Program-made: the position numbers and the translations under genes
In this document: positions 16,581 through 56,784 of the stretch, in pieces
Numbering within the stretch: position 1 is the first letter of the stretch
Layout of the letters: each line of letters starts with the position of its first letter
Virus record (IMG/VR): IMGVR_UViG_3300044825_001220
Location: 1-58,161 of that record
DNA length: 58,161 nucleotides
From: a virus
Lineage: Duplodnaviria; Caudoviricetes
Direction: 5' to 3' (one strand)
Notes under the pieces: model-generated
Databases searched by the model: none
What the model was told of the DNA's origin: nothing
What the model saw: only the letters and a program-made list of their open reading frames with translations

Positions 16581-16767
16581 TCGTCATCCTTTGCACGAGG
16601 TCCTCAATCACATGATCTGCGTAGTTAAGACCCCGGATCACTCCACAGACTTTTTTGTACTCGTCGTACGTGTCGGCACGGCTTGCAGCAAGAAAGGCAA
16701 CTTGCTCCTGCCGGTACTTTTCAATCTCTTTCTGCACGAGTGCGAGCACTCGGATTTCATCCTGCAT
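16573..16767 (-). CDS. Small helical protein downstream of portal
   Basis: YDEYKKVCGVIRGL; coupled to neighbours. Confidence 0.7.
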   Translation of the reverse strand: MQDEIRVLALVQKEIEKYRQEQVAFLAASRADTYDEYKKVCGVIRGLNYADHVIEDLVQRMTNE

Positions 16768-19241: not shown

Positions 19242-20783
19242 TTACACTGTGTAGAACCGCTCTCGGCGGTGACTCTTGAACCAATGAATCTCTTCGGGCT
19301 CGTCTGTGGGTAGACGCAACAACCCGCCCTGCCTGAACCGCATCAACGCCAGCGTGGTGGCGTCTACCAAGTCATCATGCTCCCCGTTGGGAAACTCTGC
19401 AATTTCATCGACCAACTCCTCGGCCCAACGCGTGCGAGGAACCCACACCTTACCAGACGCAATTATGTCGGAGACCGCATTCAAGCGGGCAATTTTGTCC
19501 TGGCCCTTACTTGGCGTGAACTCCTGAACCGGGACCCCCATCGCCCGCAGGTCGTAAATCAGCGGTGCCCCAGAGGCTTTCTTCTCCACAATCAGCGCGT
19601 CGGGCTCGTAATCCCGGTACTCTGCGAGCACGTCTTTCTTCAGGTCCGGGAACTCAACGCGCTTCTTATACGTATTGAGCAGGATGATGTTGGGCCTGTT
19701 GCCATCCTTGGGATTACTGAAAATCCCCCACGTCGTGCCCGCTGAATAGTCAGCCCGCTGCGTCTTCTCGAACGCCGTATCCCACGACTGCAAGATGAAC
19801 TCACACTGCGGTGGGTCGTCTTCTTCCCACCACTGCCACCAGTCGCGCTTGATGATGGCCGACTCGTTACCAATCGGGTTCTGCTGGTACTGTGCCTGCC
19901 ACTTGGCATTGGGCAACTCGTCCTGCAACGCCTTGAGCTCGTCAAAACTCCAGAACTCAGGCCACAGCGGGTTGCCCGAGGGCATGATGGCGGGGAACTC
20001 AATGACCTCCCACTGCTCACCCCCACGTCCGGCCGCCGCTTTGAGCACCTGTCCCGTCAAATCCCGCTGCGCCCAGCGAGTCATCACGATCACGATGGCC
20101 CCACCGGGCTGGAGACGCTGGCGTGGCCCCGATGTGTACCACTCGTACACCTTGTCGTAGATGTCCGGGTTGGTCGCCGCCAGCGCAGCCTCCTGTTCAG
20201 AGTGCGGATCGTCGATGATCAGCAGGTGGGCACCCTTACCAGTGACCGTACCGCCCACACCGATGGCGAAATAGTCGCCGCCCTTGGACGTATTCCACCT
20301 TCCAGCAGCTTTTGAGTCCGCCTGAAGCTCCAAATTCGGAAAAATGTCCTTGTACGCCTCAGAATCAACCAAATTTCGTACTTTTCGACCAAAACCGACC
20401 GCTAATTCGCCAGTATTAGAACTTTGGATTACTTTTTTGTTCGGAAACCGACCCAAAAACCACGCCGGGAGCAGATACGAGGCAAATTCCGACTTCGTAT
20501 GCCGTGGCGGCATGTTGATGATGAGCCGTTTGCACTCGCCATTGGCCACTCGCTCGAACGCTTTGGCCATAATCTTGTGGTGACGCCCGCCAATGAAGTC
20601 CGGCCAGACCTTATTGACGAACCCCAGAAACGTATCGCGGGCTTTTTCCTTCTCTAACAGCTTCTCCCGGCGCTCCAAGTCCTCCAAAATGAGTACTTTC
20701 TTCGCCTCCGGCAGCTTATCAAGCTGCGAAAGGAGTACTTTTAGCTCCTCATCAAGCGTAGAAACCTGCGTTTCATACCGCAT
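19242..20783 (-). CDS. terL: Terminase large subunit
   Basis: INMPPRHTKS (Walker A variant), LLIIDDP (Walker B), VMTRW, QSWDTA, HDDLVD nuclease motifs; start reassigned to MRYE. Confidence 0.92.
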   Translation of the reverse strand: MRYETQVSTLDEELKVLLSQLDKLPEAKKVLILEDLERREKLLEKEKARDTFLGFVNKVWPDFIGGRHHKIMAKAFERVANGECKRLIINMPPRHTKSEFASYLLPAWFLGRFPNKKVIQSSNTGELAVGFGRKVRNLVDSEAYKDIFPNLELQADSKAAGRWNTSKGGDYFAIGVGGTVTGKGAHLLIIDDPHSEQEAALAATNPDIYDKVYEWYTSGPRQRLQPGGAIVIVMTRWAQRDLTGQVLKAAAGRGGEQWEVIEFPAIMPSGNPLWPEFWSFDELKALQDELPNAKWQAQYQQNPIGNESAIIKRDWWQWWEEDDPPQCEFILQSWDTAFEKTQRADYSAGTTWGIFSNPKDGNRPNIILLNTYKKRVEFPDLKKDVLAEYRDYEPDALIVEKKASGAPLIYDLRAMGVPVQEFTPSKGQDKIARLNAVSDIIASGKVWVPRTRWAEELVDEIAEFPNGEHDDLVDATTLALMRFRQGGLLRLPTDEPEEIHWFKSHRRERFYTV

Positions 20784-21525
20784 CGGGGGTCTCCGGCGGC
20801 TGCTGAGCGGGCGGGGCGGGCTCAACCTCTTCAACCATCTCAAGCGGGGGCTTTGTCCCCAACTCTGCATCGATGTCAATGTCCACAGGCGACAAATCCG
20901 CACCGTGAGCCAACAACATTTTGCGAACTTTGTCCTTGATGGCGTTGTCGATGTCTGCAACTGAGTTGTAGGTGACCGTGATCTCGGTCTTCTCCGTAAA
21001 CAGCCCCACGTCGCTAATCTTGCCGAGCATCTCCGCTGCTTTAATTTCTATGCGCGGATCACCGCACATCGACAAGTCAAGCAGCTTGTTGGTCACAACC
21101 ATGCGAAGCTCCGCTGCGTCTGCAACGGTGTGACTGTTGTACTCGTTGAGCATCGTGCGGATGCGCTCCGCTACGTTGCCTTGGTACAGCGATGGGGGAT
21201 TTACGGACTCTGCGCGTGGGGTTGGCGAAGTCTCGGCGGTCGCATACTTCCTAGGTCTGCCGCCCTTGTTCTTGGCGGGCTTGGCTGGCTGCTCTGGCGC
21301 AATCGCATCCTCGAACTGCTGCTTCGCCCGCTCTGAAAAAGCACGGAACACCTCGTCCGCCATCTCAGTGTCTGCTTGCGAGACCTCGCCGGGCGGGCGT
21401 AACTCGGAAAGGAGCGCCGCTGTGTCCGCCGCGATCTGCATGTTTTCGCGCAGGGTCGTTGCGGCCTCGGGCGCGTCGCCCGCTGGATAAGGCACAGTCC
21501 TATCAGGTCGAATCTGTAGTGTCAT
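20773..21525 (-). CDS. Putative terminase small subunit
   Basis: Directly upstream of terL; GGRPRK; IKAAEMLGKISDVGLF. Confidence 0.6.
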   Translation of the reverse strand: MTLQIRPDRTVPYPAGDAPEAATTLRENMQIAADTAALLSELRPPGEVSQADTEMADEVFRAFSERAKQQFEDAIAPEQPAKPAKNKGGRPRKYATAETSPTPRAESVNPPSLYQGNVAERIRTMLNEYNSHTVADAAELRMVVTNKLLDLSMCGDPRIEIKAAEMLGKISDVGLFTEKTEITVTYNSVADIDNAIKDKVRKMLLAHGADLSPVDIDIDAELGTKPPLEMVEEVEPAPPAQQPPETPDAV

Positions 21526-22010: not shown

Positions 22011-22042
22011 GAACAAACCGACAACCCCCTGTCGGATTGTTC
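22011..22042. repeat. Palindromic motif copy 1 (6-bp spacer)
   Basis: GAACAAACCGACA accccc TGTCGGATTGTTC. Confidence 0.8.
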
Positions 22043-22080
22043 GGGCGCTGTGCCCGTTCTTTATTGAAAGGAAAAACATC

Positions 22081-22752
22081 ATGGCTAAATCTATTCCTGT
22101 TGTCGCGGCTCAGTCTGCGATCCCCGGTGTCAATGAAGCCCCTGTGGCTGAAGCGGCTGTGGTTCTCTCACCCTCGGAACTCGAGACAATCGAGCAGTTG
22201 GGGCGCGACTACTGGATGGCCGAGGACGCCAAAGCGGTCGCGGATCGCAAGCTGAGCCAATGTGACGTGGCGCTTTTCGATATCGTCAAAGGCGTCAGCT
22301 ATCGGCGCTTCATGGCGATCCGTGCGGCCTACGTCACGGGATGCCGGGACAAAGGCGCGGCTACTGATGAAGCGGCGGCCAAAGTGTGGGAGCGCGCAAT
22401 CAATCGCATTGGCAATTCGTGCGGTTTCGAGCGTCCCAAAGCTGAGTCGGAAGCGGCAAAGCGCATGGCGGCTAAGCGGGAAGCGCTGGCCAAGCAGTTC
22501 GAGTCCAAGACGGACGGCGAGTTGATCGAACAGCGCAATGCCCTCGTGGCCTTTGGCGATACTAAGTCGCTGAAGCAGGCGACAGAGATTGCCAAAGAGA
22601 TCGAGCGGCGCGAAAAGCCCGTACTGGATGAGGCGCAAAACCAGCGGGTGGCCGTGCGTGACAAGCTGATTGCCCGTGCCAAGGAATTGTGCAAGGCGGG
22701 CACGGCGGATGCGGATGACAAGATGATCCGCGCCCTTCAGGCTATGTCGTAA
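22081..22752 (+). CDS. First early gene, helical hypothetical protein
   Basis: SD GAAAGGA before ATG 22081 (MAKSIPVV). Confidence 0.75.
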   Translation: MAKSIPVVAAQSAIPGVNEAPVAEAAVVLSPSELETIEQLGRDYWMAEDAKAVADRKLSQCDVALFDIVKGVSYRRFMAIRAAYVTGCRDKGAATDEAAAKVWERAINRIGNSCGFERPKAESEAAKRMAAKREALAKQFESKTDGELIEQRNALVAFGDTKSLKQATEIAKEIERREKPVLDEAQNQRVAVRDKLIARAKELCKAGTADADDKMIRALQAMS

Positions 22753-22768
22753 CCCGAGCGGGCATATC

Positions 22769-22960
22769 ATGAGAGACATTCATGCTGTGCCCGCCATCGG
22801 GCGGGACTACAAATCCATGGCGGCTGTCAAAGCCGATTGGGCGGCGGGCAAGGATTTTCGTTGCACTCTAACCGGGCGCTATTTTAGCGTACGGGATAAT
22901 TTGCCCTGCGAAGTCTGGGTGCGCTACGCCCGCATGACCAAAGTCGTTAGAGTTAAGTAA
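22769..22960 (+). CDS. Small phage hypothetical protein
   Basis: GRDYKS...ADWAAGKDF motif; followed by terminator. Confidence 0.7.
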   Translation: MRDIHAVPAIGRDYKSMAAVKADWAAGKDFRCTLTGRYFSVRDNLPCEVWVRYARMTKVVRVK

Positions 22961-22966
22961 ATTATT

Positions 22967-23003
22967 GGCCCTCGGTGCTTCGGCGCTGAGGGCCGTTTTT
23001 TTT
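22967..23003 (+). terminator. Rho-independent terminator
   Basis: GGCCCTCGGTGC TTCG GCGCTGAGGGCC + 8 T. Confidence 0.85.
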
Positions 23004-23077
23004 GGCCCGCGTGGCCCGCCCGGACTGACTCGGCGGCGGCGCGGGCGGCGCTGAGCGTAGTTCCTGATAGTAGTTCC

Positions 23078-23103
23078 GGAGGATCGGTGGAGGATCGGTG
23101 GAG
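23078..23103 (+). repeat. 11-bp tandem repeat
   Basis: GGAGGATCGGT x2 plus GGAG. Confidence 0.8.
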
Positions 23104-23180
23104 CTTGCGCGGCAAGCTATGCTGGCGTAAGGGTTGTTTGCCGTGAAGCATCGGCGTAGTCTGCGCGGCGGGCGGGGCCG

Positions 23181-23207
23181 AACAAAGCGACAAAGTGTCG
23201 GATTGTT
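23181..23207. repeat. 27-bp palindromic motif copy 2
   Basis: AACAAAGCGACA aag TGTCGGATTGTT. Confidence 0.85.
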
Positions 23208-23515
23208 TACCTTGAGTTTCTATGCACAGGGGCGCTGACGCCTCGCCCGCCTCGCCTAGTGTACCTAAGTACTACTTTTAACCATATCAAACTCGGCACA
23301 TTTACAAAACGTGTAATACCGGCAAAGCGGGCCCCGCTGGCATCGCGGCTTCCCCAGTAAGCAGCTACTGACTAATGTTGTTAAACGGACTTGATTTCCT
23401 GGCTAATATATCATTTATTCATCCTAAGCATATCTTATTCGCCATGCCCGCATCGGCAAACCGTTGATTTTCCTAGCTTTCTTCTTCTTTACTTTAAATA
23501 AAATAAATAATATAT

Positions 23516-23646
23516 GATGTTGTTCCTGACTTGGGGGTATAGAGAACAAAGCACCAGTTCACCCCCACGCCCATGCCTACCCGACCCCCACCCCCTCGCT
23601 TTTCCCGCCCCTTCTTTCCCTATTCCTCAAAGTCTGGAACAACATC
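23516..23646. repeat. Long inverted repeat in AT-rich region (candidate origin)
   Basis: GATGTTGTTCCTGACTT (23516-32) vs AAGTCTGGAACAACATC (23630-46), 16/17 complementary. Confidence 0.7.
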
Positions 23647-23685
23647 TTTTATTTTTTATCAAACCCTTTTTTACCCTTGATTTTA

Positions 23686-23713
23686 TTGACTTTCGCCCCG
23701 AGTATGATATGCT
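23686..23713 (+). promoter_or_regulatory. Putative sigma70 promoter
   Basis: TTGACT-16 bp-TATGCT with TGn extension. Confidence 0.4.
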
Positions 23714-23769
23714 TACCCCGCAAGTTTTGTTATCTTGCCGGTTAACTCTATCAAACTCAAGGAGCCACC

Positions 23770-24501
23770 ATGGGACGCCCAATCCGCTACGCCAACGCCG
23801 ACAACCTCCTCGCCAACTGCACCATCAAGGACGACTGCTTTCTCTGGCCCGAGTCCTCAACCCCCATGCCGATGCTCAGCCCCGCATCGCCTCTGACCAA
23901 GCAGTTCGGTACATCCTCTGTTGTGCGTATCCTATTCTCTATCTGTAGGTACGTACCGGCGGGTCCACGGCTGGTGCGTCGATGCAGCCACCGCTTCTGC
24001 GTCAACCCGTACCACTACTCCGAGGCCAAAGAGTTCCGCGCTCGGCGGGCGAAGCTCACCGACCCCCATGGACTCCTGCCCGAGCAGGAGGGCTCGCGCC
24101 ACCTCATCGCCCCGCCCGACGAGGTTCTCTATTCCATGCGCCCGACTGACCCATTTCACGTTAAGGTTCTGATGGACGCGGCGGTCATGGCGGGCTTCGA
24201 CGCCAAGGGCATCGTGAACAAGCGCAGTTACGCACCGATCCCCAAGCCCGAGCCCCGCTACGCCGACCCCCAGAAGCCTGTGCTTGTCGTGCGCGGCAAG
24301 GCCAAGCCCGCCTCGAGCCCAGACGGCGGCTCCCTCGACGATATCGAGGAGTCCTTGGGGAAAACCCACAACCCTCGGGACTTCCCACCCACCCAAGACC
24401 AGCGTGATTTGGACAGCATCTTCAGCCTCATCCACCACCGGGACCGCCTCCTCGAAGCGGGCGTAGCGAAAACCCACGGTGCGGAACAGCCTGGAAACTA
24501 G
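23770..24501 (+). CDS. HNH/His-Me finger-like protein, catalytic His apparently missing
   Basis: CFLW...LVRRCSHRFCVNPYH; SD AAGGAG. Confidence 0.65.
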   Translation: MGRPIRYANADNLLANCTIKDDCFLWPESSTPMPMLSPASPLTKQFGTSSVVRILFSICRYVPAGPRLVRRCSHRFCVNPYHYSEAKEFRARRAKLTDPHGLLPEQEGSRHLIAPPDEVLYSMRPTDPFHVKVLMDAAVMAGFDAKGIVNKRSYAPIPKPEPRYADPQKPVLVVRGKAKPASSPDGGSLDDIEESLGKTHNPRDFPPTQDQRDLDSIFSLIHHRDRLLEAGVAKTHGAEQPGN

Positions 24502-24533
24502 GCGAACCCGAGCCTCTATTGGCGAACATGGAC

Positions 24534-24562
24534 TTGACAAAGTCCAATTTATATGGTACAAT
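24534..24562 (+). promoter_or_regulatory. Strong sigma70 promoter
   Basis: TTGACA-17 bp-TACAAT. Confidence 0.8.
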
Positions 24563-24612
24563 GTACGAAGTACATTGAGCGCTAGGGGGCGGCAATGTAC
24601 GACGTGACGTAG

Positions 24613-24639
24613 AACTCTCCGACACCGTGTCGCTTTGTT
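24613..24639. repeat. 27-bp palindromic motif copy 3
   Basis: AACTCTCCGACA ccg TGTCGCTTTGTT, between promoter and RBS. Confidence 0.85.
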
Positions 24640-24673
24640 CTAGACCAGCAACTTTCCTATATTGGAGGATACG

Positions 24674-24901
24674 ATGACCACCACATTGACTTTTGCCCAG
24701 CTGCGTGAAGTGCAGCTCCCCCTGAACATAAGGAACGTAAGCATCTACCCGAACGGGCGGATGTACGTGTCATTCGACAACCCGTCGAATGACCTCCGGG
24801 CTACTAAGCCCTGGAGTTCCGAGGTTACCCTGGACAAGGCCAAAGTTTTGTTTGCCCACCTCGGCACCGGAGTCCACCCTGTTCGCGCCGTCTGGGGGTG
24901 A
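24674..24901 (+). CDS. Hypothetical early protein
   Basis: SD GGAGG. Confidence 0.7.
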   Translation: MTTTLTFAQLREVQLPLNIRNVSIYPNGRMYVSFDNPSNDLRATKPWSSEVTLDKAKVLFAHLGTGVHPVRAVWG

Positions 24902-24904
24902 GCG

Positions 24905-25108
24905 ATGACCGATGACCGACTAATCGAACTGCACAACAGTATTGTTGACTACGTGCAGTACTACGCAGACGGGGTGCTCACGCTGCCCGAGTTCGCCGCC
25001 CGCATCGCGGCAATCCACAACGAGTTGACCGCCGACAGCCCCATCGGGCTGCTCGACCCCGTCAGCGGGCTGCGCCTCGTTCAGGAGTACTGCCATGGAC
25101 CCGTTTGA
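24905..25108 (+). CDS. Hypothetical early protein
   Basis: Operon packing. Confidence 0.6.
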   Translation: MTDDRLIELHNSIVDYVQYYADGVLTLPEFAARIAAIHNELTADSPIGLLDPVSGLRLVQEYCHGPV

Positions 25109-25202
25109 TTTCTCTGGCCCCGGGCGGGCGTGGCGCATCGTGCTGCTGCTTGCAATCGTGGTCGTGCTGTGCCTCGACCTGTTCGTGTGGAGGCCGCTAT
25201 GA
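25095..25202 (+). CDS. 35-aa single-TM peptide
   Basis: Manual read MDPFDFSGPGRAWRIVLLLAIVVVLCLDLFVWRPL; SD AGGAG; ATGA overlap with next gene. Confidence 0.6.
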   Translation: MDPFDFSGPGRAWRIVLLLAIVVVLCLDLFVWRPL

Positions 25203-25423
25203 GTGACTTCTTTGAATGTGAGTGCTGTGGCGATGACGTTCACTCTGCCCGCTGGGCACTCGACTACCGCGTTTGTCTCAAGTGCGGTGATCTGCTTGCA
25301 GAGGATGCCCGGGCTTCGTGGTGCATCGTGCAAGAGTACGGCAAGGGCCCGTACCAGTTTGTGACCGCCGCGTCCGCTCCCCGGACTCTGCTGGACACGA
25401 ACCAGAAGTGCCCTCGTTCCTAA
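25199..25423 (+). CDS. C4 zinc-finger protein (DksA/TraR-finger-like)
   Basis: CECCGDDVHSARWALDYRVCLKCG; SD GGAGG. Confidence 0.65.
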   Translation: MSDFFECECCGDDVHSARWALDYRVCLKCGDLLAEDARASWCIVQEYGKGPYQFVTAASAPRTLLDTNQKCPRS

Positions 25424-25459
25424 CTTTCCGTCACTTTTGTCGGATTGTTTCTTCCAACC
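25422..25459. repeat. Palindromic motif copy 4 within a 37-38 bp direct repeat
   Basis: AACTTTCCGTCA cttt TGTCGGATTGTT TCTTCCAACC. Confidence 0.85.
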
Positions 25460-25475
25460 AACTTTGGAGAGAGTA

Positions 25476-25718
25476 ATGATTGAAACCATCGTAGGAAAAA
25501 CCATCGCCGGCGTTCGCTACGTCGACCCGTGGAGCCGAGGGCTGACCATCGTGTTCACCGACGGCACCAAGCTGCGCGTCGATGAGCGGATGCAGGCGGG
25601 CGAGATCAATGTGGAGCTCAACAACGAGCCCGTTTCATATGGGGTGCAGGCGGGCGAGATCAATGTGGCGCTCAACAACGAGCCCGTTTCATATGAGCGG
25701 GATTTGGAGCAGGAATAA
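25476..25718 (+). CDS. Hypothetical protein with 18-aa tandem duplication
   Basis: MIETIVGKTI...; QAGEINVxLNNEPVSY x2. Confidence 0.65.
   Translation: MIETIVGKTIAGVRYVDPWSRGLTIVFTDGTKLRVDERMQAGEINVELNNEPVSYGVQAGEINVALNNEPVSYERDLEQE
25591..25695 (+). repeat. 54-bp-period tandem duplication
   Basis: 25591-25641 and 25645-25695 differ at one base. Confidence 0.9.
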
Positions 25719-25730
25719 ACCCCACCAGCA

Positions 25731-25767
25731 AACTTTCCGTCATTCTGTCGGATTGTTTCTTCCAACC
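25731..25767. repeat. Palindromic motif copy 5 within the direct repeat
   Basis: AACTTTCCGTCA ttc TGTCGGATTGTT TCTTCCAACC. Confidence 0.85.
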
Positions 25768-25786
25768 TTTGTATCAAGGACTAAAA

Positions 25787-26863
25787 ATGAAAACTGACGT
25801 TAACCTCATTCGCCGCGTGAACTTCGCGGAGACAGTCAATGTTCTGCTCAACGCGGGCGAGAACTCCGTGCATCTTGTTGGCGAGCCCGGTGTGGGCAAG
25901 ACCGCCATGCACAAGGAAATCATTGAGCGCACGGGGTTCCGTGGTATCTACATCGACGGGCCCAACACCGACGTGGGTCAGTCGGGTATGCCCATCCCCA
26001 ACCACCAGAGTAGGACGCTGGACTTCTATCCAGCCGAGTACTACGGACTGCACACGGGTGAGCCCCTGTGCATCATGATCGACGAGTGGACCAAGACTGA
26101 CGACTACGTGCGTAACACGTTGCACCCCCTGCTCCATGAGCGCAGGCTGGGTAACTTCAATCTCCACCCGGACAGCATTGTCTTCACCACCGGTAATCTG
26201 GACAGCGACGGCGTGGGCGACCACGTCAAGGCGCATACCCGGAGCCGACAAACTTGGTTGCCATACATGAAACCTACAGCTAAAGAATGGTGTGCTTGGG
26301 CCACCAACAACGGTATGACCGCCGAGGTCATCGCATGGGTACACGAGTACGAGCATTGCATGATGAGCTACTTGGACGGCGGGCAAGAGAAGAACCCGTA
26401 CATCTTCAATCCCAACGATGCGTCGCAGACCGCGTTCGTGTCCCCGCGCACGCTGGCCAAGGCGTCGCATTGGGTGCAACGCCGTTCTGCGTTATCGGAA
26501 AACGCGTTCATCGCCTGCCTTGACGGCACTATCGGCTACGCGGCATCGCGGGATTTGCAGGCGTACATCGAGCTTGCCGATCAACTGCCAACACGGGAGT
26601 CCATCGAGACTTCGCCCGAGACGGCGACTGTGCCCACCAGCCCAGCGGCCCAGTGCATCTTGATGTTCAAGGCTGTGGCTGTGGTGAGCCGCGACAACTT
26701 TGCGACGTGGATGCGCTACGTCAAGCGCATGCCCAAAGAGACACAGGCTGTGTTCATCAACAGCTTGCTCGAAGTCAGGGACAAGAAGGCATGGGCCATC
26801 GTGCATCCGAGTTTCGTGACCTGGGCTCGTGAGAACCAGTACATGTTTGCTGGCTTGAAATAA
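25787..26863 (+). CDS. MoxR/dynein-related AAA+ ATPase
   Basis: Walker A GEPGVGKT, Walker B IMIDE, sensor TGN, SPRT. Confidence 0.85.
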   Translation: MKTDVNLIRRVNFAETVNVLLNAGENSVHLVGEPGVGKTAMHKEIIERTGFRGIYIDGPNTDVGQSGMPIPNHQSRTLDFYPAEYYGLHTGEPLCIMIDEWTKTDDYVRNTLHPLLHERRLGNFNLHPDSIVFTTGNLDSDGVGDHVKAHTRSRQTWLPYMKPTAKEWCAWATNNGMTAEVIAWVHEYEHCMMSYLDGGQEKNPYIFNPNDASQTAFVSPRTLAKASHWVQRRSALSENAFIACLDGTIGYAASRDLQAYIELADQLPTRESIETSPETATVPTSPAAQCILMFKAVAVVSRDNFATWMRYVKRMPKETQAVFINSLLEVRDKKAWAIVHPSFVTWARENQYMFAGLK

Positions 26864-26884
26864 ACGACAAATTGTCGGAATGTT
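26858..26884. repeat. 27-bp palindromic motif copy 6
   Basis: AAATAAACGACA aat TGTCGGAATGTT, overlaps stop codon and abuts next SD. Confidence 0.75.
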
Positions 26885-26894
26885 TGGAGGACAC

Positions 26895-27062
26895 ATGAAC
26901 ACCGAGAAACAAATCAGCAACCCACCCCAGCCAGATTGGCGCGACCCGAACAGCGGATGCTACTGCGTGGTCTGCTTGGCCCCGGTCAAGGAGGACATCT
27001 TCGTGCAGCGGCAGGGGTGCTGCCCCGACCACAAGTTCGATGATGAATGCACCTACACATGA
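26895..27062 (+). CDS. Small Cys-rich protein
   Basis: SD GGAGG; CVVC...CCPDH. Confidence 0.6.
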   Translation: MNTEKQISNPPQPDWRDPNSGCYCVVCLAPVKEDIFVQRQGCCPDHKFDDECTYT

Positions 27063-27073
27063 GGGGTAATCAA

Positions 27074-27238
27074 ATGAACAACCAACGCACCGAGGCGCAA
27101 GCCTACGCGAACTTTGTGGACTACACCGGCTTTGTGACGATCATGCCATTCGCTGATCATCCCACCGCGTGCGAGGCCATGTGTGAGTTCTTTGAGCAAT
27201 GGCTCAACCTTGCCAAACAACGGGGAGAACTGGAATGA
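27074..27238 (+). CDS. Hypothetical protein
   Basis: SD GAGG; operon packing. Confidence 0.55.
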   Translation: MNNQRTEAQAYANFVDYTGFVTIMPFADHPTACEAMCEFFEQWLNLAKQRGELE

Positions 27239-27402
27239 CTAGAGAAGATTGGATCATCCTGCGCCTGCTGATGACAACATCGAAGGCCAATCTGCACAAC
27301 GACTTGGACGTAGCCCGGTCGATCATGCATTTGATCAAGAGGTACGGACAGGATGCGGTGAACAACTGCATCGACCAACTGCACAAGGAGAGAAGCAAAT
27401 GA
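27235..27402 (+). CDS. Hypothetical protein
   Basis: MTREDW; ATGA coupling. Confidence 0.6.
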   Translation: MTREDWIILRLLMTTSKANLHNDLDVARSIMHLIKRYGQDAVNNCIDQLHKERSK

Positions 27403-27644
27403 TGCCGAAAAGCGTATGGAAAGTGACGGGTCGTCACATCGAAGATAGCCCGGATGGAGTTCTGTTCGAGGCGTACTTCACCGACAGGGACACGGCTCAC
27501 GCTGTGTACCACAAGGGTGAGCGCGAGTACGGCATAGCCGCTGGCTACACCAAGATGCGCTGGTCATTGGAGGGGTTCTACCTCAACAACGACCCGCACA
27601 TTGACCAGATGTTCAACGATGTTCGTGAAGCAATGGAGGAATGA
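27399..27644 (+). CDS. Hypothetical protein
   Basis: MMPKSVW; SD AAGGAG; ATGA coupling. Confidence 0.6.
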   Translation: MMPKSVWKVTGRHIEDSPDGVLFEAYFTDRDTAHAVYHKGEREYGIAAGYTKMRWSLEGFYLNNDPHIDQMFNDVREAMEE

Positions 27645-27645
27645 A

Positions 27646-27831
27646 ATGAAACACATCTACTGCCTGTGGCAGGAGGAAGAAGTCATCCCGAGGCTGTGGT
27701 TCGACACGAAGGAAGCCGCTGAAACCGCCGCCCGGATGCTCTATCCCAACGAATCGCCTGAGATGCGGTACTCCCGCATCTACGAGCGCCCCCTGCGATC
27801 CCTCAACGACCTCACCGGAGAAACCAAATGA
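27646..27831 (+). CDS. Hypothetical protein
   Basis: MKHIYCLW; SD GGAGG. Confidence 0.6.
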   Translation: MKHIYCLWQEEEVIPRLWFDTKEAAETAARMLYPNESPEMRYSRIYERPLRSLNDLTGETK

Positions 27832-28076
27832 AACGACCATTCGTAACTCAGTATTTCACAGAAAGCGATGCCTCGGGCAAGAAGCCCGTGAGCATGGGCT
27901 ACGCCGCAAGCGTGGGCGGAGCGCGTAAGAACATGGCGGTGCGTATCGTCATCGGCCAGTACGGTCTAGCCGTCGTGCTTGACCGCGAGTCGCGTGATGT
28001 GATCAGCACCATGCGTAGGACCAAAGCTGGAATGTCAATCAAAGATATGGGGGTGCAAGATGTTGCTCAAAAATAA
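27828..28076 (+). CDS. Hypothetical protein
   Basis: ATGA coupling. Confidence 0.6.
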   Translation: MKRPFVTQYFTESDASGKKPVSMGYAASVGGARKNMAVRIVIGQYGLAVVLDRESRDVISTMRRTKAGMSIKDMGVQDVAQK

Positions 28077-29331
28077 AATGCCTGCTGAGCGCAGGCTCGA
28101 ACTTGTTCATGTATCGCTGATGCGGGACAAAGCGTTCGCGTTCTTCGCGGGCTTATTCATGGTCGGTAAGACGACCATCCTCGACAAGCCAATCACGGCG
28201 CGGACCAACGGGCGTGACGTTGAGTACGGGCGTGCGTTCGTGGACGGGCTCACCGACAAGGAGCTTGCCTTTCTTGTGCTTCACGAGAACATGCACAAGT
28301 GCTATCGCCATCTCACAACGTGGCGGGCGTTGTTCGACAAGGACAAGCGCCGTGCCAACATGGCGTGCGACTTTGTCATCAACATCCAGTTGCGTGATAT
28401 GGACCCGGAGGAGCGCCTGATCGCCATGCCTCGGGATCGCAAGACCGGGGAGTTCATCGGTTGCTACGACGTGCAGTATCGTGGAATGGATACCAAGCAG
28501 GTTTGGGATGCGCTCGAAGGCAAGACGAAAGACAAAGACAAAGACAAGGGCCGGGGCGGCGCGGGCGACAAGGGTCAGGGTGACCCCGAACAAGGCGACG
28601 GAATGTCGGAAAGTTCAGACGATGGCTATGACGCACTCGATGAGCACGATTGGGAAGGCGCACAGGAGCTGTCTCAGAAAGAACAGCAAGACCTTGAGCG
28701 TGAGATCGACCGGGCCCTGCGGCAGGGCGGCATCTACGCGGGCAAGATGGGCGGCAATATGTCACGCGACATTGAGCGACTGCTTGAACCCAAGGTTGAT
28801 TGGCGCGAGGTGTTGCGCCGGTTCGTGCGTACTTCACTCACGGATCGGGACAGCCCGTCGTGGCGCAAGGCGCACAAGCGGTATCTCTGGCAGGACATTA
28901 TCTTGCCGAGCATCATCGGTAAGCGTATGAAGTCGCTGGCCGTGGGCATCGACACATCTGGTTCTATCCAAGGCGATCTGCTCGGTGCGTTCATGGGCGA
29001 GCTTGACAAGGTGGTGCGTACCGTATCGCCTGATCGCGTGGACATCATGTACTGGGACACCAACGTGGCTAGGCACGAGGTGTACACCAGCAACGCCCAG
29101 TCCATCGTTGACAGCACCAAGCCAGCGGGCGGTGGTGGCACAGACCCGGACTGCGTACCTGCGTTCATGCGAGATCACAAGATCAATCCTGACGCACTCA
29201 TCATGCTGACGGATGGGTTCATGAGTAGCGACTCCGGCAGGTGGGCGCATCTGTCGTGTCCTGTTCTCTGGTGTGTGATTGGTAACCCGAACGTGTCCAT
29301 CCCGAAGGGGTCTGTGGTTCGCGTCGAGTGA
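28060..29331 (+). CDS. Metallopeptidase-like + vWA domain protein (DUF2201 type)
   Basis: TARTNG, LHENMH (HExxH), NMACDFVIN; MIDAS IDTSGSI, GGGTD, LTDG. Confidence 0.85.
   Translation: MLLKNKMPAERRLELVHVSLMRDKAFAFFAGLFMVGKTTILDKPITARTNGRDVEYGRAFVDGLTDKELAFLVLHENMHKCYRHLTTWRALFDKDKRRANMACDFVINIQLRDMDPEERLIAMPRDRKTGEFIGCYDVQYRGMDTKQVWDALEGKTKDKDKDKGRGGAGDKGQGDPEQGDGMSESSDDGYDALDEHDWEGAQELSQKEQQDLEREIDRALRQGGIYAGKMGGNMSRDIERLLEPKVDWREVLRRFVRTSLTDRDSPSWRKAHKRYLWQDIILPSIIGKRMKSLAVGIDTSGSIQGDLLGAFMGELDKVVRTVSPDRVDIMYWDTNVARHEVYTSNAQSIVDSTKPAGGGGTDPDCVPAFMRDHKINPDALIMLTDGFMSSDSGRWAHLSCPVLWCVIGNPNVSIPKGSVVRVE
28589..28615. repeat. 27-bp palindromic motif copy 7 (inside CDS linker)
   Basis: AACAAGGCGACG gaa TGTCGGAAAGTT. 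Confidence 0.8.
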
Positions 29332-29366
29332 CCCGTGTTAACAAGTTCTTTTATTAGGAGTCGATC

Positions 29367-29606
29367 ATGACTGATCATGTGATTTTGACCATTGGTGAAA
29401 CGAAGTTCGTGTTGACCACGAACGAGGCGTTTGGTATCGCCAACATACTCAACGGTTCCACGCAGATAACCACTGCGTGGCTGAATGGGAAAAGCAGAAG
29501 AGTGTACGGCGAGCCGAAGATGGATGCGGCGCACATTGCCCCGATCAACGGACCACTTCAGCTTGAGCTGGAGACGAACACCAAAGAACGCGAGGCATCG
29601 AAATGA
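29367..29606 (+). CDS. Hypothetical protein
   Basis: SD AGGAG. Confidence 0.7.
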   Translation: MTDHVILTIGETKFVLTTNEAFGIANILNGSTQITTAWLNGKSRRVYGEPKMDAAHIAPINGPLQLELETNTKEREASK

Positions 29607-29773
29607 AACAGATACCGCTCGATACTTTCTCGGTCAAGTTGAACCGAGAGACTTGGGACCTGCTTGTTCAGGTCCGCACAGAACTCGGGGCCAAGCTCGG
29701 GTTTGAACCTACGAACGGCCAAGTCGTTCGCCATCTCATCGCCATTTACTTTGGAGAAGCAAGCAATGTATAA
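29603..29773 (+). CDS. 56-aa ribbon-helix-helix-like protein
   Basis: Manual read MKQIPLDTFSVKLNRETWDLLVQVRTELGAKLGFEPTNGQVVRHLIAIYFGEASNV; ATGA coupling; fills the gap. Confidence 0.6.
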   Translation: MKQIPLDTFSVKLNRETWDLLVQVRTELGAKLGFEPTNGQVVRHLIAIYFGEASNV

Positions 29774-30836
29774 CACGTACGGAGCACCATCCCTGTCAAC
29801 CTATCAGGCGGCATTGGATTGGTACAACAAAACCAAACCCATTCGTGGGGCAACCACAAGGCCCATCGGCAACAGACGCTACCACCACTCGGCGTCGATA
29901 GATAAGCGCGAAGACAACATCGTGCTGGTCTACGAGCGGCAACCGCTGATCGTGTGGGAGCCTGACTCGACGTTCACGCTTCGTGCACCTGCGTACTACA
30001 ACGCATATCAAGCGGACCGGTTGTACGGCTGGGGCCCGAGGGGCATGCGGTTTAACTGGGACAGCGGGCGTTTATTTGTTGTGAACAGGGACGACAACAT
30101 ACATCTGCCTGAGGGCGGGTCGCTCAGGTTTGTGCCGACGAGCGATTCCCCGTTTCCAACGTACCAGTGCGTCACCGAACGCAGCAGTCTTGAGTACAAG
30201 ATGCGGCGCGGGGTTGCAAACAAGCTGGCTTCCGCACAATGCGTGGACTTTCTCGCTTGGGCACAAGTTGTTCTGGCGACAAGCACCCCGGTTGTGTACG
30301 AGGAGTGCGTCGAGGCGCGGGGGAGACTTCAGACTGCTGTCGGGTATTCACCCGAGTTCATAAAAGAGATGGACTCGCGGCATCAGACAAGTAACAGTCC
30401 TGAAGCAGAGCACGCTCGTCGGAGGTGGTATCGACTGCACAACCGGATCAGAAGCCTCCCGTTTCGGTTGACCAACGATGGGAGGGGCTGGGTGTTTGCG
30501 CCCGCGTGTAGAGTCATGTTGGATCAAATCACTTCGACGGATTACGCGCAATGGGATGACGTGCTCAAGGTAATCGCCGGTCACTCAGGTCGGAGTCTGT
30601 ACACACCGGTGTCTCACGGCAACGGGTTCAGTCGGATGCTGACGCGCCAAGCCTTGACGTTCGATGGGGTAGTGGAGTTCATCCATAAGCTGATAGCTTG
30701 TGTTTACCGAGACGCGGTGTTCGAGGTAGTCCCTGTGCGTAACGGCGCGATGCCGTCTGCGCGTAACTCCGGTTTCTTCCGCGACATGCTGGATGAACCG
30801 GAACAAGGCGACAAATTGTCGGAAAGTTCTGTTTAA
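29766..30836 (+). CDS. Hypothetical protein
   Basis: Likely start MYNTYG; SD GGAG. Confidence 0.7.
   Translation: MYNTYGAPSLSTYQAALDWYNKTKPIRGATTRPIGNRRYHHSASIDKREDNIVLVYERQPLIVWEPDSTFTLRAPAYYNAYQADRLYGWGPRGMRFNWDSGRLFVVNRDDNIHLPEGGSLRFVPTSDSPFPTYQCVTERSSLEYKMRRGVANKLASAQCVDFLAWAQVVLATSTPVVYEECVEARGRLQTAVGYSPEFIKEMDSRHQTSNSPEAEHARRRWYRLHNRIRSLPFRLTNDGRGWVFAPACRVMLDQITSTDYAQWDDVLKVIAGHSGRSLYTPVSHGNGFSRMLTRQALTFDGVVEFIHKLIACVYRDAVFEVVPVRNGAMPSARNSGFFRDMLDEPEQGDKLSESSV
30802..30828. repeat. 27-bp palindromic motif copy 8
   Basis: AACAAGGCGACA aat TGTCGGAAAGTT. Confidence 0.85.
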
Positions 30837-30850
30837 CCAAGGAGTCAATC

Positions 30851-31729
30851 ATGAGCCAAGTAAATTTCGAAACCCCAACCCTTTCGCTCGCATCCATGGC
30901 GATGCTGGTCGAGCTACGCATCAGCACGTGGACTGCGCGTAAGCGTGACAACGCGACGACTGAGGAAGTCAACCGATCAAAGAACGCCAACGACGATGCG
31001 GGCAGCGTCTACAAGTACCTCATGGCGGGCAGTGATCACCTCAAGAAGATCGAGAAGTACGCGGCCAAGTGCCGGGCGTGGAACGGCCAGCAGACCCTGC
31101 CGTGGATGAAGGGCGTGGGCTTGCTCCCGATGGAGAACTTCTTTTCGTATCGAGAGCAGCTCGGCACGATGGAATCCAATTTCAACGGATTGGTTGAAGA
31201 CTTCATCAAGGTCTACCCGTCGCTCGTCAGCGCACAGGCGTTCAAGCTCGGGGATTACTTCGTGGCCGAGGAGTTCCCGCTGGTGGAGTCATTGCCCCGC
31301 CGGTTCCGCTTTGAATACAACTTCCTCCCGGTTCCAGAGAAGGGGGACTTCCGTATTAAATGCGAGGAGCGAGTGCGCCAAGACTTGGCCGAGCAGTACG
31401 ACAAGATGTTCAACCAGAAGCTGGCCGAGGCGATGCGTGAACCGTGGCAGCGACTGCACGATGTGCTGGTGCATATGACCGAGCGACTGAGTGACGCGAG
31501 CGATGGCACCCGCAACATCTTCCGCGACTCCATCGTGAACAAACCGCTGGAGTTGTGCGCCCTGCTGTCCAAGCTCAACGTGACCAAGGACCCGCAGCTT
31601 GAGGAAGCGCGGCGCATGCTGGAGGTGGCGCTCGTTGGCGTAAGCCCTGACGACTTGCGCAATATCCCATCGGCGCGGGCTGAGCTGAAGTCAAGCGTCC
31701 AAGAGATCATCAACAAGTTCACATGGTAA
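30851..31729 (+). CDS. DUF3150-like protein
   Basis: LRISTWTARKRD...TLPW...LLP...; co-occurs with AAA and vWA genes. Confidence 0.6.
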   Translation: MSQVNFETPTLSLASMAMLVELRISTWTARKRDNATTEEVNRSKNANDDAGSVYKYLMAGSDHLKKIEKYAAKCRAWNGQQTLPWMKGVGLLPMENFFSYREQLGTMESNFNGLVEDFIKVYPSLVSAQAFKLGDYFVAEEFPLVESLPRRFRFEYNFLPVPEKGDFRIKCEERVRQDLAEQYDKMFNQKLAEAMREPWQRLHDVLVHMTERLSDASDGTRNIFRDSIVNKPLELCALLSKLNVTKDPQLEEARRMLEVALVGVSPDDLRNIPSARAELKSSVQEIINKFTW

Positions 31730-31739
31730 GGAGTGATTC

Positions 31740-32645
31740 ATGTCTAACGTAGAAAGCAAAAACCCCAAGGTCATACCAGACCCGTTCCTGCTTGAACTGT
31801 TCAAGCGCGTGGCGCTGGTCAATTCAAACCTCAAGTTTGTGTACGACTTTGTAAATGGTAATCATCAGCCATACACCACGAAGCAAAGCTGCATAAAACG
31901 GAGCGACGGTACAAGGGAGACTGCACCGGAGGATTATTCTTTCGGGCAGTACTACGATGTGTACGACAACGGCAAGCCGTGCGGTGTCGTGCGTGTTGAC
32001 TATCAGTATCAGCGAAACAAGGGGAACGTTTCGATGTACGCCATCAAGTCGCACCTCGTCGAGCGGACGAGTCGTGGGCGTGGCTTCATACGCACGGGTG
32101 ACGTAGCCAAGGCTGTGGCAAACGCCAAGAAGTACCTACGCGCTCCAACGGATGGGTACACCTTGTTCAACAAGCTGGCCGAGGCAGACAGCACCATGCG
32201 TGATGTTGTGTCAGACTTGATGCGCCCCATCACCCGTGGCAACTTCCTGACAGACATAACGAGTGCGCAGGTACTACTGAATGCTTACATGACCGGACGC
32301 CCCGTTGACACCCAACTGGAAAGCGCGATGCGGGCTAAGCTGACATCAGACAAGTTCGACGCCGCGCTCAGCGAGTACTATCTTGCTAAATGGCTTCGGG
32401 ATTTACCGGGCACAGAGCGACTGTTTGTTCATCGCAACGGCACAAGCTATTCGTTCTTTACATCCAACCCGGACCCGGGCTCTGAAGAGGCGGCGATAAC
32501 CACACCGGTTGTGACGGTGGAGTTTGAGGACTTACCCCTCAAGACGCAAGAACGACTAAGTGTGCTGCAACTTATGAAAGACCGTGAGGTAGTCTTGAAT
32601 GTCGGCATCCGCATAACAGACACCGAGTTCTTCATAAGAGTGTAA
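31740..32645 (+). CDS. Hypothetical protein
   Basis: SD AAGGAG; followed by terminator. Confidence 0.75.
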   Translation: MSNVESKNPKVIPDPFLLELFKRVALVNSNLKFVYDFVNGNHQPYTTKQSCIKRSDGTRETAPEDYSFGQYYDVYDNGKPCGVVRVDYQYQRNKGNVSMYAIKSHLVERTSRGRGFIRTGDVAKAVANAKKYLRAPTDGYTLFNKLAEADSTMRDVVSDLMRPITRGNFLTDITSAQVLLNAYMTGRPVDTQLESAMRAKLTSDKFDAALSEYYLAKWLRDLPGTERLFVHRNGTSYSFFTSNPDPGSEEAAITTPVVTVEFEDLPLKTQERLSVLQLMKDREVVLNVGIRITDTEFFIRV

Positions 32646-32664
32646 GATCAACTGTCTGCCACTT

Positions 32665-32689
32665 GACCCGCTTCGGCGGGTCTTTTTTT
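32665..32689 (+). terminator. Rho-independent terminator closing early arm
   Basis: GACCCGC TTCG GCGGGTC + 7 T. Confidence 0.9.
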
Positions 32690-32705
32690 GCCTGTACTTT
32701 CCCCG

Positions 32706-32732
32706 AACAATCCGACATACTGTCGGTTTGTT
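32706..32732. repeat. 27-bp palindromic motif copy 9
   Basis: AACAATCCGACA tac TGTCGGTTTGTT. Confidence 0.85.
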
Positions 32733-32765
32733 TTTGGCTAGGTGTTTCCCCTAGTCATGATGCGC

Positions 32766-32794
32766 TTGACATAGTCTAGTCCTCGTGCTACATT
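32766..32794 (+). promoter_or_regulatory. sigma70 promoter of replication arm
   Basis: TTGACA-17 bp-TACATT with TGn extension. Confidence 0.75.
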
Positions 32795-32814
32795 GATCTT
32801 CCGAGGACATAAAA

Positions 32815-33180
32815 GTGGCATCCACTCCCGAGCGAAAAGTTAAGGAAGCTGTAGCGGCGGTGTTGAAGAACAACGCAGTCTACTACTTCTTTCCCCCTGC
32901 CAACGGTTTAGGCCGTGCGGGCATCCCCGACATCATCGCATGCTGCAACGGCATGTTCCTTGCCATTGAGTGCAAGGCGGGCAAGGGAGTCACCACCGCA
33001 CTACAAGAACGAGAACTCTCCCGCATACGCAACGCGGGCGGGGTAGCCATCGTCGTGCGTGAGAACAACATAGACAGCATCCAACCGATCATCAACCAAC
33101 TAAGGAGCATCCGTGGCCTACCCAAAGTTTCTGCGCCGCCTAGTCCCAGAAGAACTCCGCGCTCTGCTGGAGAAGATTGA
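32815..33180 (+). CDS. VRR-NUC nuclease / Holliday junction resolvase
   Basis: TPERKVK...GIPDII...FLAIECKA...TALQ. Confidence 0.85.
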   Translation: MASTPERKVKEAVAAVLKNNAVYYFFPPANGLGRAGIPDIIACCNGMFLAIECKAGKGVTTALQERELSRIRNAGGVAIVVRENNIDSIQPIINQLRSIRGLPKVSAPPSPRRTPRSAGED

Positions 33181-41668: not shown

Positions 41669-41886
41669 TTGGCTATACGCTGTATATGCAGCAGGTCAAC
41701 AAGTCCGCCGATACCAAGAGGCTCGGTGTGAAGTTGGGACGCCACTGCATCAAGAACAGTTTGTCCGTGGCTGCGCTGGCCAAGGAGTTCGGTGTGAGCC
41801 GTCAGACCATCTACAACTGGTTTTCCGGTAAGACTGAACCCACAAAGCAGCACACTCCACGGATCAAAGAAATTCTTGGTTTGTAA
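41665..41886 (+). CDS. XRE/Cro-like HTH protein
   Basis: SVAALAKEFGVSRQTIYNWFSG. Confidence 0.85.
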   Translation: MIGYTLYMQQVNKSADTKRLGVKLGRHCIKNSLSVAALAKEFGVSRQTIYNWFSGKTEPTKQHTPRIKEILGL

Positions 41887-45069: not shown

Positions 45070-45097
45070 GCCCCGCCGTAACTGGCGGGGCTTTTTT
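45070..45097 (+). terminator. Terminator at convergence of the two arms
   Basis: GCCCCGCCG taac TGGCGGGGC + 6 T. Confidence 0.8.
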
Positions 45098-52559: not shown

Positions 52560-52586
52560 GGTCAATCCTTCTCAGGGTGGCCCAGA

Positions 52587-56750: not shown

Positions 56751-56784
56751 ATTTGCCTCGCAGAAAAGGGTTTAAACGAGTCTA

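Follow-up and report, generated by a model that had tools for sequence, protein, structure and literature searches.

Introduction

Dispersed palindromes have been noted in several phage groups. As described in PMC4351075, in so far as that paper treats the repeats, the Cluster O mycobacteriophages carry a 17-bp palindromic repeat (5'-TGTTCGGNNNCCGAACA) more than 30 times per genome. The copies are spread genome-wide, for the most part in short gaps between genes and in some cases inside genes, and the repeat is absent from the host genome. Site-to-site recombination accounts for some insertions and deletions (indels) in these phages; in the same treatment the authors propose that the repeats are sites for a dimeric regulator, and they leave the function open and the palindromes unexplained (PMC4351075). 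Here we analyse nine dyad-symmetric sites arrayed along the early arm of an uncultivated viral genome from IMG/VR (IMGVR_UViG_3300044825_001220; Duplodnaviria, Caudoviricetes). The whole record, 58,161 bp, was analysed and is hereafter called the window. The Cluster O palindrome is the closest described analogue of this array. Judged by its published description, the two have in common an inverted repeat with a free 3-bp centre, many copies that are mostly intergenic, absence from host genomes, and a site-to-site indel. However, the Cluster O repeat has simple 7-bp arms, one sequence type and a genome-wide distribution, whereas the sites described here number 7–10 per genome, are confined to the early arm, have 13-bp bipartite arms, fall into five co-varying sequence types across a clade and avoid complementarity in their spacer.

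Several other systems offer partial parallels. Cluster A stoperators are 13-bp asymmetric sites, distributed genome-wide and oriented with transcription, that are bound by the immunity repressor of a temperate phage and, when bound, are thought to stop elongating RNA polymerase. They resemble the present array in having one site repeated many times inside transcribed regions, where it occupies short intergenic gaps. However, the sites in the window are dyad-symmetric 29-mers without polarity, and no integrase or CI-type repressor family is present among the approximately 70 window open reading frames (ORFs) that were scanned. The phiC31 repressor binds conserved inverted repeats (CIR), and KorB, a ParB-type protein, binds the OB operators of IncP plasmids; as in the window, one palindrome is repeated at many intergenic places, and in these systems a single protein thereby exerts global control over a set of genes. 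For these two systems the reader protein is known (the c repressor and KorB), whereas no homologue of either was detected among the ORFs scanned. Cluster K mycobacteriophages reportedly have start-associated sequences, asymmetric motifs that recur in intergenic DNA directly 5' of genes and are linked to the start codon. Like these, and like the intergenic repeats of halovirus HF2, which carry promoters according to the part of PMC8707807 that deals with them, the sites studied here lie just 5' of genes. Unlike them, they have no −10-like element at a constant distance, and a promoter at each site is thereby ruled out. Our literature searches (Pag-Yong1, DUF3150 and related) found no printed description of these arrays.

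Results

The nine sites share the consensus GAAC-W3-S-CGACA-N3-TGTCG-S-W3-GTTC, or more finely GAAC-A-A-W-S-CGACA-N3-TGTCG-S-W-T-T-GTTC, and all lie within positions 22011–32733, a 10.7-kb stretch of early genes on the plus strand (Table 1). The original prediction, made by inspection of the DNA alone, was of nine copies of a 27-bp palindrome confined to this arm. Searching the window with that 27-bp consensus and up to two mismatches gave eight matches, compared with a mean of 0.27 in 100 shuffles, none of which reached the observed count. Seven of the eight have at most one mismatch on the better strand (23181, 24613, 25731, 26858, 28589, 30802 and 32706); the eighth, at 13634 in the late arm, has two and is probably a chance match. 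The two remaining copies, at 22012 and 25422, are genuine spacing variants that keep the same flanks around a longer centre (6 and 4 nt, respectively), so that the standard frame is seen in seven of the nine sites. That frame is 29 bp rather than 27 bp long, because a G/C pair extends both ends (GAAC...GTTC); the palindrome itself was correctly recognized.

The same nine sites emerge from relatives alone. We built a half-site matrix from 60 unique half-sites of 15 relative loci, leaving out the window and its 96% identical twin, L005. This matrix finds 19 half-sites of at least 11 bits in the window, compared with a mean of 3.55 and a maximum of 6 in 20 shuffles. Eighteen of them form nine inverted pairs and the other is a weak lone match at 8394 (11.1 bits). 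The sites are therefore confined to 22011–32733, with no isolated half-sites and no chance-level spread over the genome.

Each half-site is a 13-bp bipartite element comprising an outer GAAC, an A/T-rich 3-bp spacer and an inner (C/G)CGACA. The left half and the reverse-complemented right half share one matrix. Although the right half is the stronger in six of the nine window sites, relatives show no consistent left/right polarity (30 versus 42 in motif type A, 34 versus 23 in type B), and the earlier remark that both orientations occur is meaningless for such a site. Within the plus-strand arm, seven of the sites are intergenic or overlap a stop codon. The internal sites, spaced 0.3–2.2 kb apart, occupy short gaps between a stop codon and the next ribosome-binding site (RBS), and most sites are 11–40 nt before the next ATG. 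The promoters predicted beside sites 3 and 9 and the two copies predicted within coding sequence, sites 7 and 8, are all found where they had been placed (Table 1).

Arrays in relatives had been named beforehand as a test of the prediction. A search with the DUF2201 protein encoded in the window returned 41 IMG/VR loci (54–96% identity), and 41/41 have a syntenic array in the same arm, each of one of five motif types: type A, as in the window (GAAC..CGACA-n3; 16 loci), type B (GGA-N4-TCGACA-N3; 12 loci), type C (GAAC-N3-CCAAC-N5; 8 loci), type D (GAAC-N3-TCGAA-N5; 4 loci) and type E (GGA-N4-CCCTT-N5; 1 locus). All five share bipartite arms and a total length of 29 bp. When the types are aligned by frame they differ at one to four positions per 13-bp half-site, and both halves always switch together. 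In a midpoint-rooted tree of the ATPase (AAA) and DUF2201 proteins (38 rows; L007, L022, L032 and L038 were left out, as one of the two genes is lacking), type A is paraphyletic and types B, C and D each form one derived clade. Specificity has therefore switched several times while the positions of the sites stayed unchanged. Since all 14–20 half-sites of a genome changed together, and did so several times, a trans-acting reader is needed. The sites are a real cis element under strong purifying and concerted selection.

The layout of the array is conserved as well. Nine whole records were scanned, of which four have a completeness rating of 100%; in each, all motif matches fall within one stretch of 9–10.4 kb, and a reversed-pattern control gave no match. 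There are 7–10 sites per genome; the gaps between them have a median of 1.35 kb, and the largest gap is usually 2.1–2.6 kb. These site lists, like those behind the half-site comparison, the centre lengths and the permutations below, come from a simple filter, which for the window took in one chance match (54997) and missed the site at 26858; it also missed some degenerate sites elsewhere (for example at 8734 and 10524 of L008), which inflated a 7.6-kb gap in the spacing count. The site within the DUF2201 gene is kept at the same place in most lineages, each in its own motif type, with the linker peptide shifting accordingly, and is retained where the gap would otherwise reach about 4 kb. Centre lengths are distributed 79/5/1 among type A sites, and type C has two lengths (30/12); in types A, B and C the first site of the arm has a longer centre. 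In 13/13 genomes examined this first site is preceded by an extended −10-like promoter and followed by a small hairpin, a T-run and the first RBS. The last site, in 15/15 relatives examined and in all five types, is 3–17 nt behind a conserved terminator and 12–45 nt before the −35 element of the next promoter, so the terminated transcript would not contain it.

Pairing tests bear on the form in which the sites are recognized. Over the full 13-bp hairpin of 66 type A sites, 79.8% of cells are paired compared with 82.0% in shuffles, and 499 of 500 shuffles are as high. The covariation score of type A sites is 0.065, compared with 0.091 in shuffles, with no compensatory change. On the sense strand (13 pairs at 65 sites) there are 25 G·U and 20 A·C oppositions, that is, no G·U bias. 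The stem bases are near-invariant, the centre is free and the spacer is W-rich. Mid-stem U·U mismatches are conserved at two window sites, and inner-stem mismatches (CGTCA, CGCCA and TGACG) are both tolerated and conserved. Moreover, complementarity is depleted at the single free spacer position when right halves are permuted within each genome: 21/72 sites are complementary there versus 31.6 expected in type A, 8/59 versus 17.7 in type B and 2/31 versus 14.6 in type C (P of 0.002 or less, values that are optimistic as orthologous sites of related genomes are not independent). The mismatches at this position are A·A or T·T. The pairing tests, the lack of polarity, the conservation of the stem and freedom of the centre, and the site behind the terminator argue that the sites are DNA recognition elements rather than RNA elements. 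The original prediction had reached the same preference for a double-stranded protein site from the lack of spacer covariation, and in this respect it holds.

A scan of 185,579 genomes with the site pattern yielded 22 single matches, most of them fully complementary, terminator-like hairpins, and a sole array, on one phage-like contig. A host REP-like element or a site derived from the host is thus ruled out. The contig in question (G001:C10; 60,068 bp) belongs to a metagenome-assembled genome (MAG) of Candidatus Nanopelagicales, acI-type actinobacteria, and carries four type A sites (loci L051 and L071–L074), clustered at 50191–56765 and 665; all of the sites of this MAG are on it. It is either a lead to the host or a binning artefact.

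A distant parallel is found in a cultured phage. Planktothrix phage Pag-Yong1 (OL906435.1) shares the ATPase, VWA and DUF3150 genes with the window. Its locus, 1827–46982, contains 29 copies of a palindrome of its own, GGTTCA-N3-TGAACC, with at most one mismatch, compared with 0.05 expected. The copies are mostly intergenic, just before an RBS, and occur in both arms. Their centre is mostly GGC or GCC, so that the symmetry runs through the centre (GGTTCA-GSC-TGAACC), and a hairpin loop could not use such symmetry. No palindrome family is seen in two HTVC023P-type relatives (L046 and L047), which are without the ATPase/VWA/DUF3150 module.

Discussion

We put at about even the chance that the nine sites are double-stranded operator sites for one dyad-symmetric, co-evolving phage protein that controls or insulates the early operon. 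The interpretation offered in the original prediction was broadly right and is partly supported: the preference for a double-stranded protein site is strengthened and equivalent arrays are present in relatives, but two defining features of stoperators, asymmetry and orientation with transcription, are absent from the putative operator or roadblock array. In the mechanism that we propose, one phage-encoded, sequence-specific protein would bind each site with dyad symmetry and co-evolve with the sites, reading the A/T-rich 3-bp spacer by its shape and not by its bases. The occupied array would then control the early operon as a unit. The strong end sites could serve to gate the operon or to insulate it: one is in the leader of the first gene, the other follows the operon terminator and precedes the next promoter, and this placement points to transcription. 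The internal sites could be roadblocks or nucleation points, shutting early transcription off as the protein accumulates.

Two early proteins are candidates for the binder, as are the hypervariable early proteins treated below. In the first of the two, the product of gene 23770, the residues C72, C77, N79, P80 and H82 (C..C.NP.H) are invariant in 19/19 sequences and a second invariant His is absent. Its AF2 model has a mean pLDDT of 77, and above 90 for residues 11–140. The top three of 48,161 chains in a VIA comparison were I-PpoI (Z 3.6), NFIC (Z 3.2) and Smad4 MH1 (Z 3.2), and an Atlas language-model search led to HNH_3/zf-His_Me_endon clusters at 0.91–0.93. These weak resemblances suggest that the N-terminal 95 or so residues may adopt a His-Me-finger/MH1-like fold. 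They agree with the HNH-like label that the protein was originally given, although Pfam and Foldseek returned no match to it. Known members of the MH1/I-PpoI-like fold bind palindromes as dimers, and the NFI, SMAD MH1 and I-PpoI families do so with a β-hairpin in the major groove. The structures that the model weakly resembles (9xvd_A, 5nm9_A and 1a73_A; Z 3.2–3.6) are protein–DNA complexes of His-Me-finger-derived DNA binders, and 9xvd is titled a homodimer. Separately, residues ~108–181 of the 23770 protein have a weak profile match (E 1.1, not significant) to C147L, RNA polymerase subunit 6 (Rpb6/omega-like) of African swine fever virus.

The second candidate, the 56-aa protein encoded at 29603, had been called RHH-like; a strand-helix-helix pattern is indeed visible, by eye only, and Pfam, PDB and Foldseek gave no match. 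The AF2 monomer has helices at residues 15–32 and 38–49 after an extended N-terminus, and the Atlas search gave one cluster, at rank 9, in which 12% of the members carry RHH_1. GAAC-type and GGA-type phages have different residues in the putative strand, a difference that represents only two evolutionary events. In Pag-Yong1 there is no BLAST-level homologue of either candidate, and the 'Cas9/Csn1 family' ORF of that phage is unrelated to 23770.

Several observations count against the operator reading. None of the early-arm proteins belongs to a DNA-binding family of Pfam, PHROG or NCBIfam, and no binder is assignable. The fold evidence for 23770 is weak (Z below 4, nothing from Foldseek), and the protein does not cleanly track motif type, as L021 (type A) and type C phages have the same β-hairpin. 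Nor does 29603, which is 96% identical between L019 (type A) and its type D sisters and would therefore read at most the outer block. A predicted promoter is near only three of the nine sites. A rigid dimer should not tolerate a centre that varies between 3, 4 and 6 nt in the window. Finally, the depletion of complementarity means that each half senses the other in folded nucleic acid. The operator model must then be supplemented by a further assumption, which we read as selection against too stable a hairpin or cruciform acting at the sole position that the reader leaves free.

Other proteins were considered as specificity factors. The recognition helix of the Cro-like helix-turn-helix (HTH) protein 41665 is almost invariant in types A–D (30 sequences), which rules it out; this protein therefore reads something conserved. 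In the HTH/DUF3310 protein 36192 there is no pattern by type. Family 22081, the first early gene, looked discordant with the core tree, but its variants mix motif types. When type-specific residues are counted, the only ORFs that stand out are 31740, 22081 and 29766, which are hypervariable in general and whose homologues are all unnamed and without Pfam families (80 matches); profile searches with 29766 and 31740 found no family and no PDB relative. The latter two ORFs (29766–30836 and 31740–32645) are only 23–31% identical among relatives whose neighbouring genes share 70–97%, and their homologues are all metagenomic. Their products may be fast-evolving proteins of host interaction or anti-defence; in Pag-Yong1 the gene in the corresponding position carries the annotation AcrVA2-like.

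A less probable alternative is that some early or injected protein occupies the same double-stranded sites in a role other than transcription, protecting, condensing or bridging the early region or loading onto it. Such a protein might load in the manner of ParB/KorB, shield the DNA from host nucleases or act together with the injected DarB-like giant protein. The confinement of the array to a single stretch in 9/9 whole records would fit this explanation, as would the fairly regular spacing, with a site kept inside a gene where a gap of about 4 kb would otherwise arise, the distance of most sites from promoters, and the match of a 2489-aa virion protein to DarB-like families. However, the exact placement of the end sites, in the leader and where terminator and promoter meet, points to transcription; the proteins scanned include no ParB, SMC or similar family; and nothing indicates which DNA enters first.

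We regard it as unlikely that the sites act as RNA hairpins in the polycistronic early mRNA, bound by a phage RNA-binding protein or nuclease for processing, stability or translational control. They do lie on a transcribed arm, for the most part after one gene's stop codon and ahead of the RBS that follows, and the analogous sites of Pag-Yong1 likewise precede RBSs. All nine window sites fold as RNA, with minimum free energies of −5.2 to −14.8 kcal/mol, and the loop-closing pair is G·U seven times and A·C never. Against this, 3–14 of 200 shuffles fold equally well for four of the sites; pairing and covariation fall below shuffles, the overall G·U excess is small and U·U mismatches are conserved in mid-stem. 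Stems conserved in sequence with free loops are the reverse of most RNA–protein recognition. In addition, the last site stands behind a strong terminator in all lineages examined, one site is kept in a coding region and an Rfam scan of the whole window gave 0 matches at the gathering score. Promoter hairpins like those used by the N4 virion RNA polymerase resemble the sites in their 5–7 bp stem, 3-nt loop and early location. They are nevertheless ruled out, as the giant ORF at 45096–52565 is DarB-like/LPD39 and no RNA polymerase family is found among the ORFs scanned; moreover, the loop base is not conserved here, and there are nine copies instead of three.

Comparable doubt attaches to the proposal that the sites work as folded DNA, in the form of a hairpin or cruciform, in recombination or replication (for example as attC-like boundaries or in single-strand initiation). 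On this rival reading the mismatch at the free spacer position would be required, the conserved A·A or T·T being part of the recognized structure, and the free length of the centre would be consistent with arms that keep their register. The AAC...GTT ends recall attC core sites. Compared with L005, the window contains the cassette-like ORF 25476–25718, flanked by sites 4 and 5, whereas L005 has a single site copy and no ORF; the breakpoints lie inside a 38-nt repeat consisting of the site and its flank. Clusters of small variable ORFs are found just 3' of sites, and the next gene after the last site encodes an Hjc/VRR-NUC-like nuclease. However, two other indels relative to L005 break at gene starts just after sites and not within them, core genes between sites are syntenic in all relatives, and the tolerated and conserved mismatches in the 5-bp inner stem would wreck a hairpin. 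Integron attC cassette sites have an adjacent tyrosine recombinase (IntI). No tyrosine or serine recombinase, Phage_integrase family or HUH protein is found among the ORFs scanned. Conserved mismatches and one site-bounded ORF indel speak for attC-like sites; the synteny of the core genes and the 29-bp length speak against them. The site-to-site indel is most simply a by-product of having repeats, and of the earlier suggestion that the sites recombine gene cassettes it is the indel that stands and the recombinase that is missing.

A bolder version of the operator reading, which we hold to be improbable, makes the array and its reader a fast-evolving address code private to each lineage, with 23770 docking on the palindromes. 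This protein, whose C-terminal half is weakly omega/Rpb6-like, would act directly on the host RNA polymerase along the whole early operon, and the obligatory spacer mismatch and free centre would mean that recognition takes place while the site is partly extruded or folded. If true, lytic phages would have a new class of transcription control, operon-wide and aided by structure, and the array would double as a recombination scaffold for the swapping of early genes. It is very improbable that the sites are passive repeats spread or homogenized by recombination or gene conversion without a reader protein: the site-to-site indel, an event of a kind also described for Cluster O in the relevant part of PMC4351075, would fit, but the sites are syntenic across lineages whose motifs differ at one to four positions per half-site, both halves switch together, the 29-bp frame and dyad are kept, and a site is maintained in a coding linker.

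Whatever binds it, the clade is a natural mutagenesis series, with five motif types at the same syntenic sites in dozens of genomes and within one 29-bp frame. This series, the site in the coding linker and the avoided complementarity make the reader protein and its recognition rules directly testable. The array gives a handle on early-gene timing in lytic phages of abundant freshwater bacteria, and Pag-Yong1, which has the shared module and 29 palindromes of its own, is an entry point in the laboratory.

Genome context

The window has a completeness rating of 92%. Its late genes, which also include an ejection-type protein, are on the minus strand and flank on both sides a plus-strand arm that runs from 22081 to ~45227; the early genes are the first 10.7 kb of this arm (Table 1). 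The early operon or operons encode a helical, K/R-rich first protein (22081), the 23770 protein, the AAA_5, DUF2201/VWA and DUF3150 proteins, the products of the two hypervariable ORFs and many small variable ORFs. Beyond the terminator and the next promoter lies the replication module, with an Hjc/VRR-NUC-like nuclease, PolA, a PD-(D/E)XK nuclease, an SNF2 helicase and a DUF927 primase-helicase. The N-terminal 1500 aa of the 2489-aa virion-arm protein are unassigned. No ParB family is present among the ORFs scanned, and there is no tRNA in the window.

Table 1. Coordinates of the palindromic sites and of the main genes and signals in the window.
Feature	Coordinates	Strand	Remarks
Site 1	22011..22042	n/a	Halves 22.0 and 21.5 bits (both strong), 6-nt centre; in 5' leader of first early gene
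Site 2	23180..23208	n/a	Standard 29-bp frame; ~185 nt after terminator 22966-22995, ahead of AT-rich stretch 5' of gene 23770
Site 3	24612..24640	n/a	50 nt downstream of promoter 24534-24562, 34 nt before ATG 24674
Site 4	25421..25450	n/a	4-nt centre, left inner block CGTCA; overlaps stop codon of upstream gene
Site 5	25730..25758	n/a	Left inner block CGTCA; directly 5' of AAA_5 ATPase gene; 38-nt repeat in common with site 4
Site 6	26857..26885	n/a	Overlaps ATPase stop codon; 10 nt before ATG 26895
Site 7	28588..28616	n/a	Within DUF2201/VWA gene 28060-29331, in hypervariable acidic linker
Site 8	30801..30829	n/a	In last 12 codons of ORF 29766-30836; 22 nt before ATG 30851 (DUF3150 gene)
Site 9	32705..32733	n/a	Both halves strong; 22 nt after terminator 32665-32682 and T-run; 33 nt before -35 of promoter 32766-32794
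Early operon(s) carrying the array	22081..32645	+
Gene 23770, candidate binder 1	23770..24501	+	33/41 loci; core protein
Sigma-70-like promoter TTGACA-17-TACAAT	24534..24562	+	11/12 consensus match
AAA_5 (MoxR-like) ATPase	25787-26863	+
DUF2201 metallopeptidase-like/VWA gene	28060-29331	+
56-aa protein, candidate binder 2	29603..29773	+	38/41 loci; strand-helix-helix pattern by eye
Hypervariable ORFs	29766-30836 and 31740-32645	+
DUF3150 gene	30851-31729	+
Early-operon intrinsic terminator GACCCGC..GCGGGTC + T7	32665..32692 (hairpin 32665-32682)	+	Kept in all motif types
Promoter of replication (middle) module	32766..32794	+	Conserved in relatives
Capsid	13038-13949	-
Portal	16767-19232	-
Large terminase	19242-20960	-
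2489-aa virion-arm protein	45096-52565	-	LPD39 domain; C-terminal 770 aa match DarB-like antirestriction PHROGs

The terminase is 48–56% identical to those of HTVC023P-type pelagiphages and of Pag-Yong1. A megablast search of the region against phage records gave no match, and no close relative is in culture. Freshwater metagenomes from many studies contain this DNA; 22 runs are listed, none of them RNA.

Several further features of the arm were observed. A conserved 74-aa protein encoded at 25199–25423 (35/41 loci) has two CxxC pairs and looks by eye like a TraR/DksA-type zinc ribbon, with no significant family match. The 560-bp stretch 5' of gene 23770 (23209–23769) is AT-rich and non-coding, has a promoter-like site at 23686 and gave no Rfam match; a gap of like length precedes the orthologous gene in relatives. 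A small hairpin (22042–22068), CGGGCG-ctgt-GCCCG followed by TTCTTTATT, directly separates site 1 from the first early gene's RBS; it is kept in relatives through compensatory changes (for example GAGCG..GCTCG) and looks like an attenuator or RBS-masking structure.

The Hjc/VRR-NUC-like junction nuclease gene (32815–33180; Pfam E 5.7e-06; 35/41 loci) is the first of the middle module, directly 3' of the last palindrome. Between that palindrome and the middle promoter (32734–32800), and at the same place in relatives, there is a second conserved motif, GTGTTTCCCCTA, followed by an A-run; the window has no further copies of this motif. The −35 hexamer of the middle promoter is embedded in a small palindrome (GACTTGACAnAGTC in relatives), and a similar stretch, TTTCCCCTAAA, lies 5' of the first early promoter in relatives. 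This second motif region may be the target of the conserved Cro-like protein encoded at 41665–41886.

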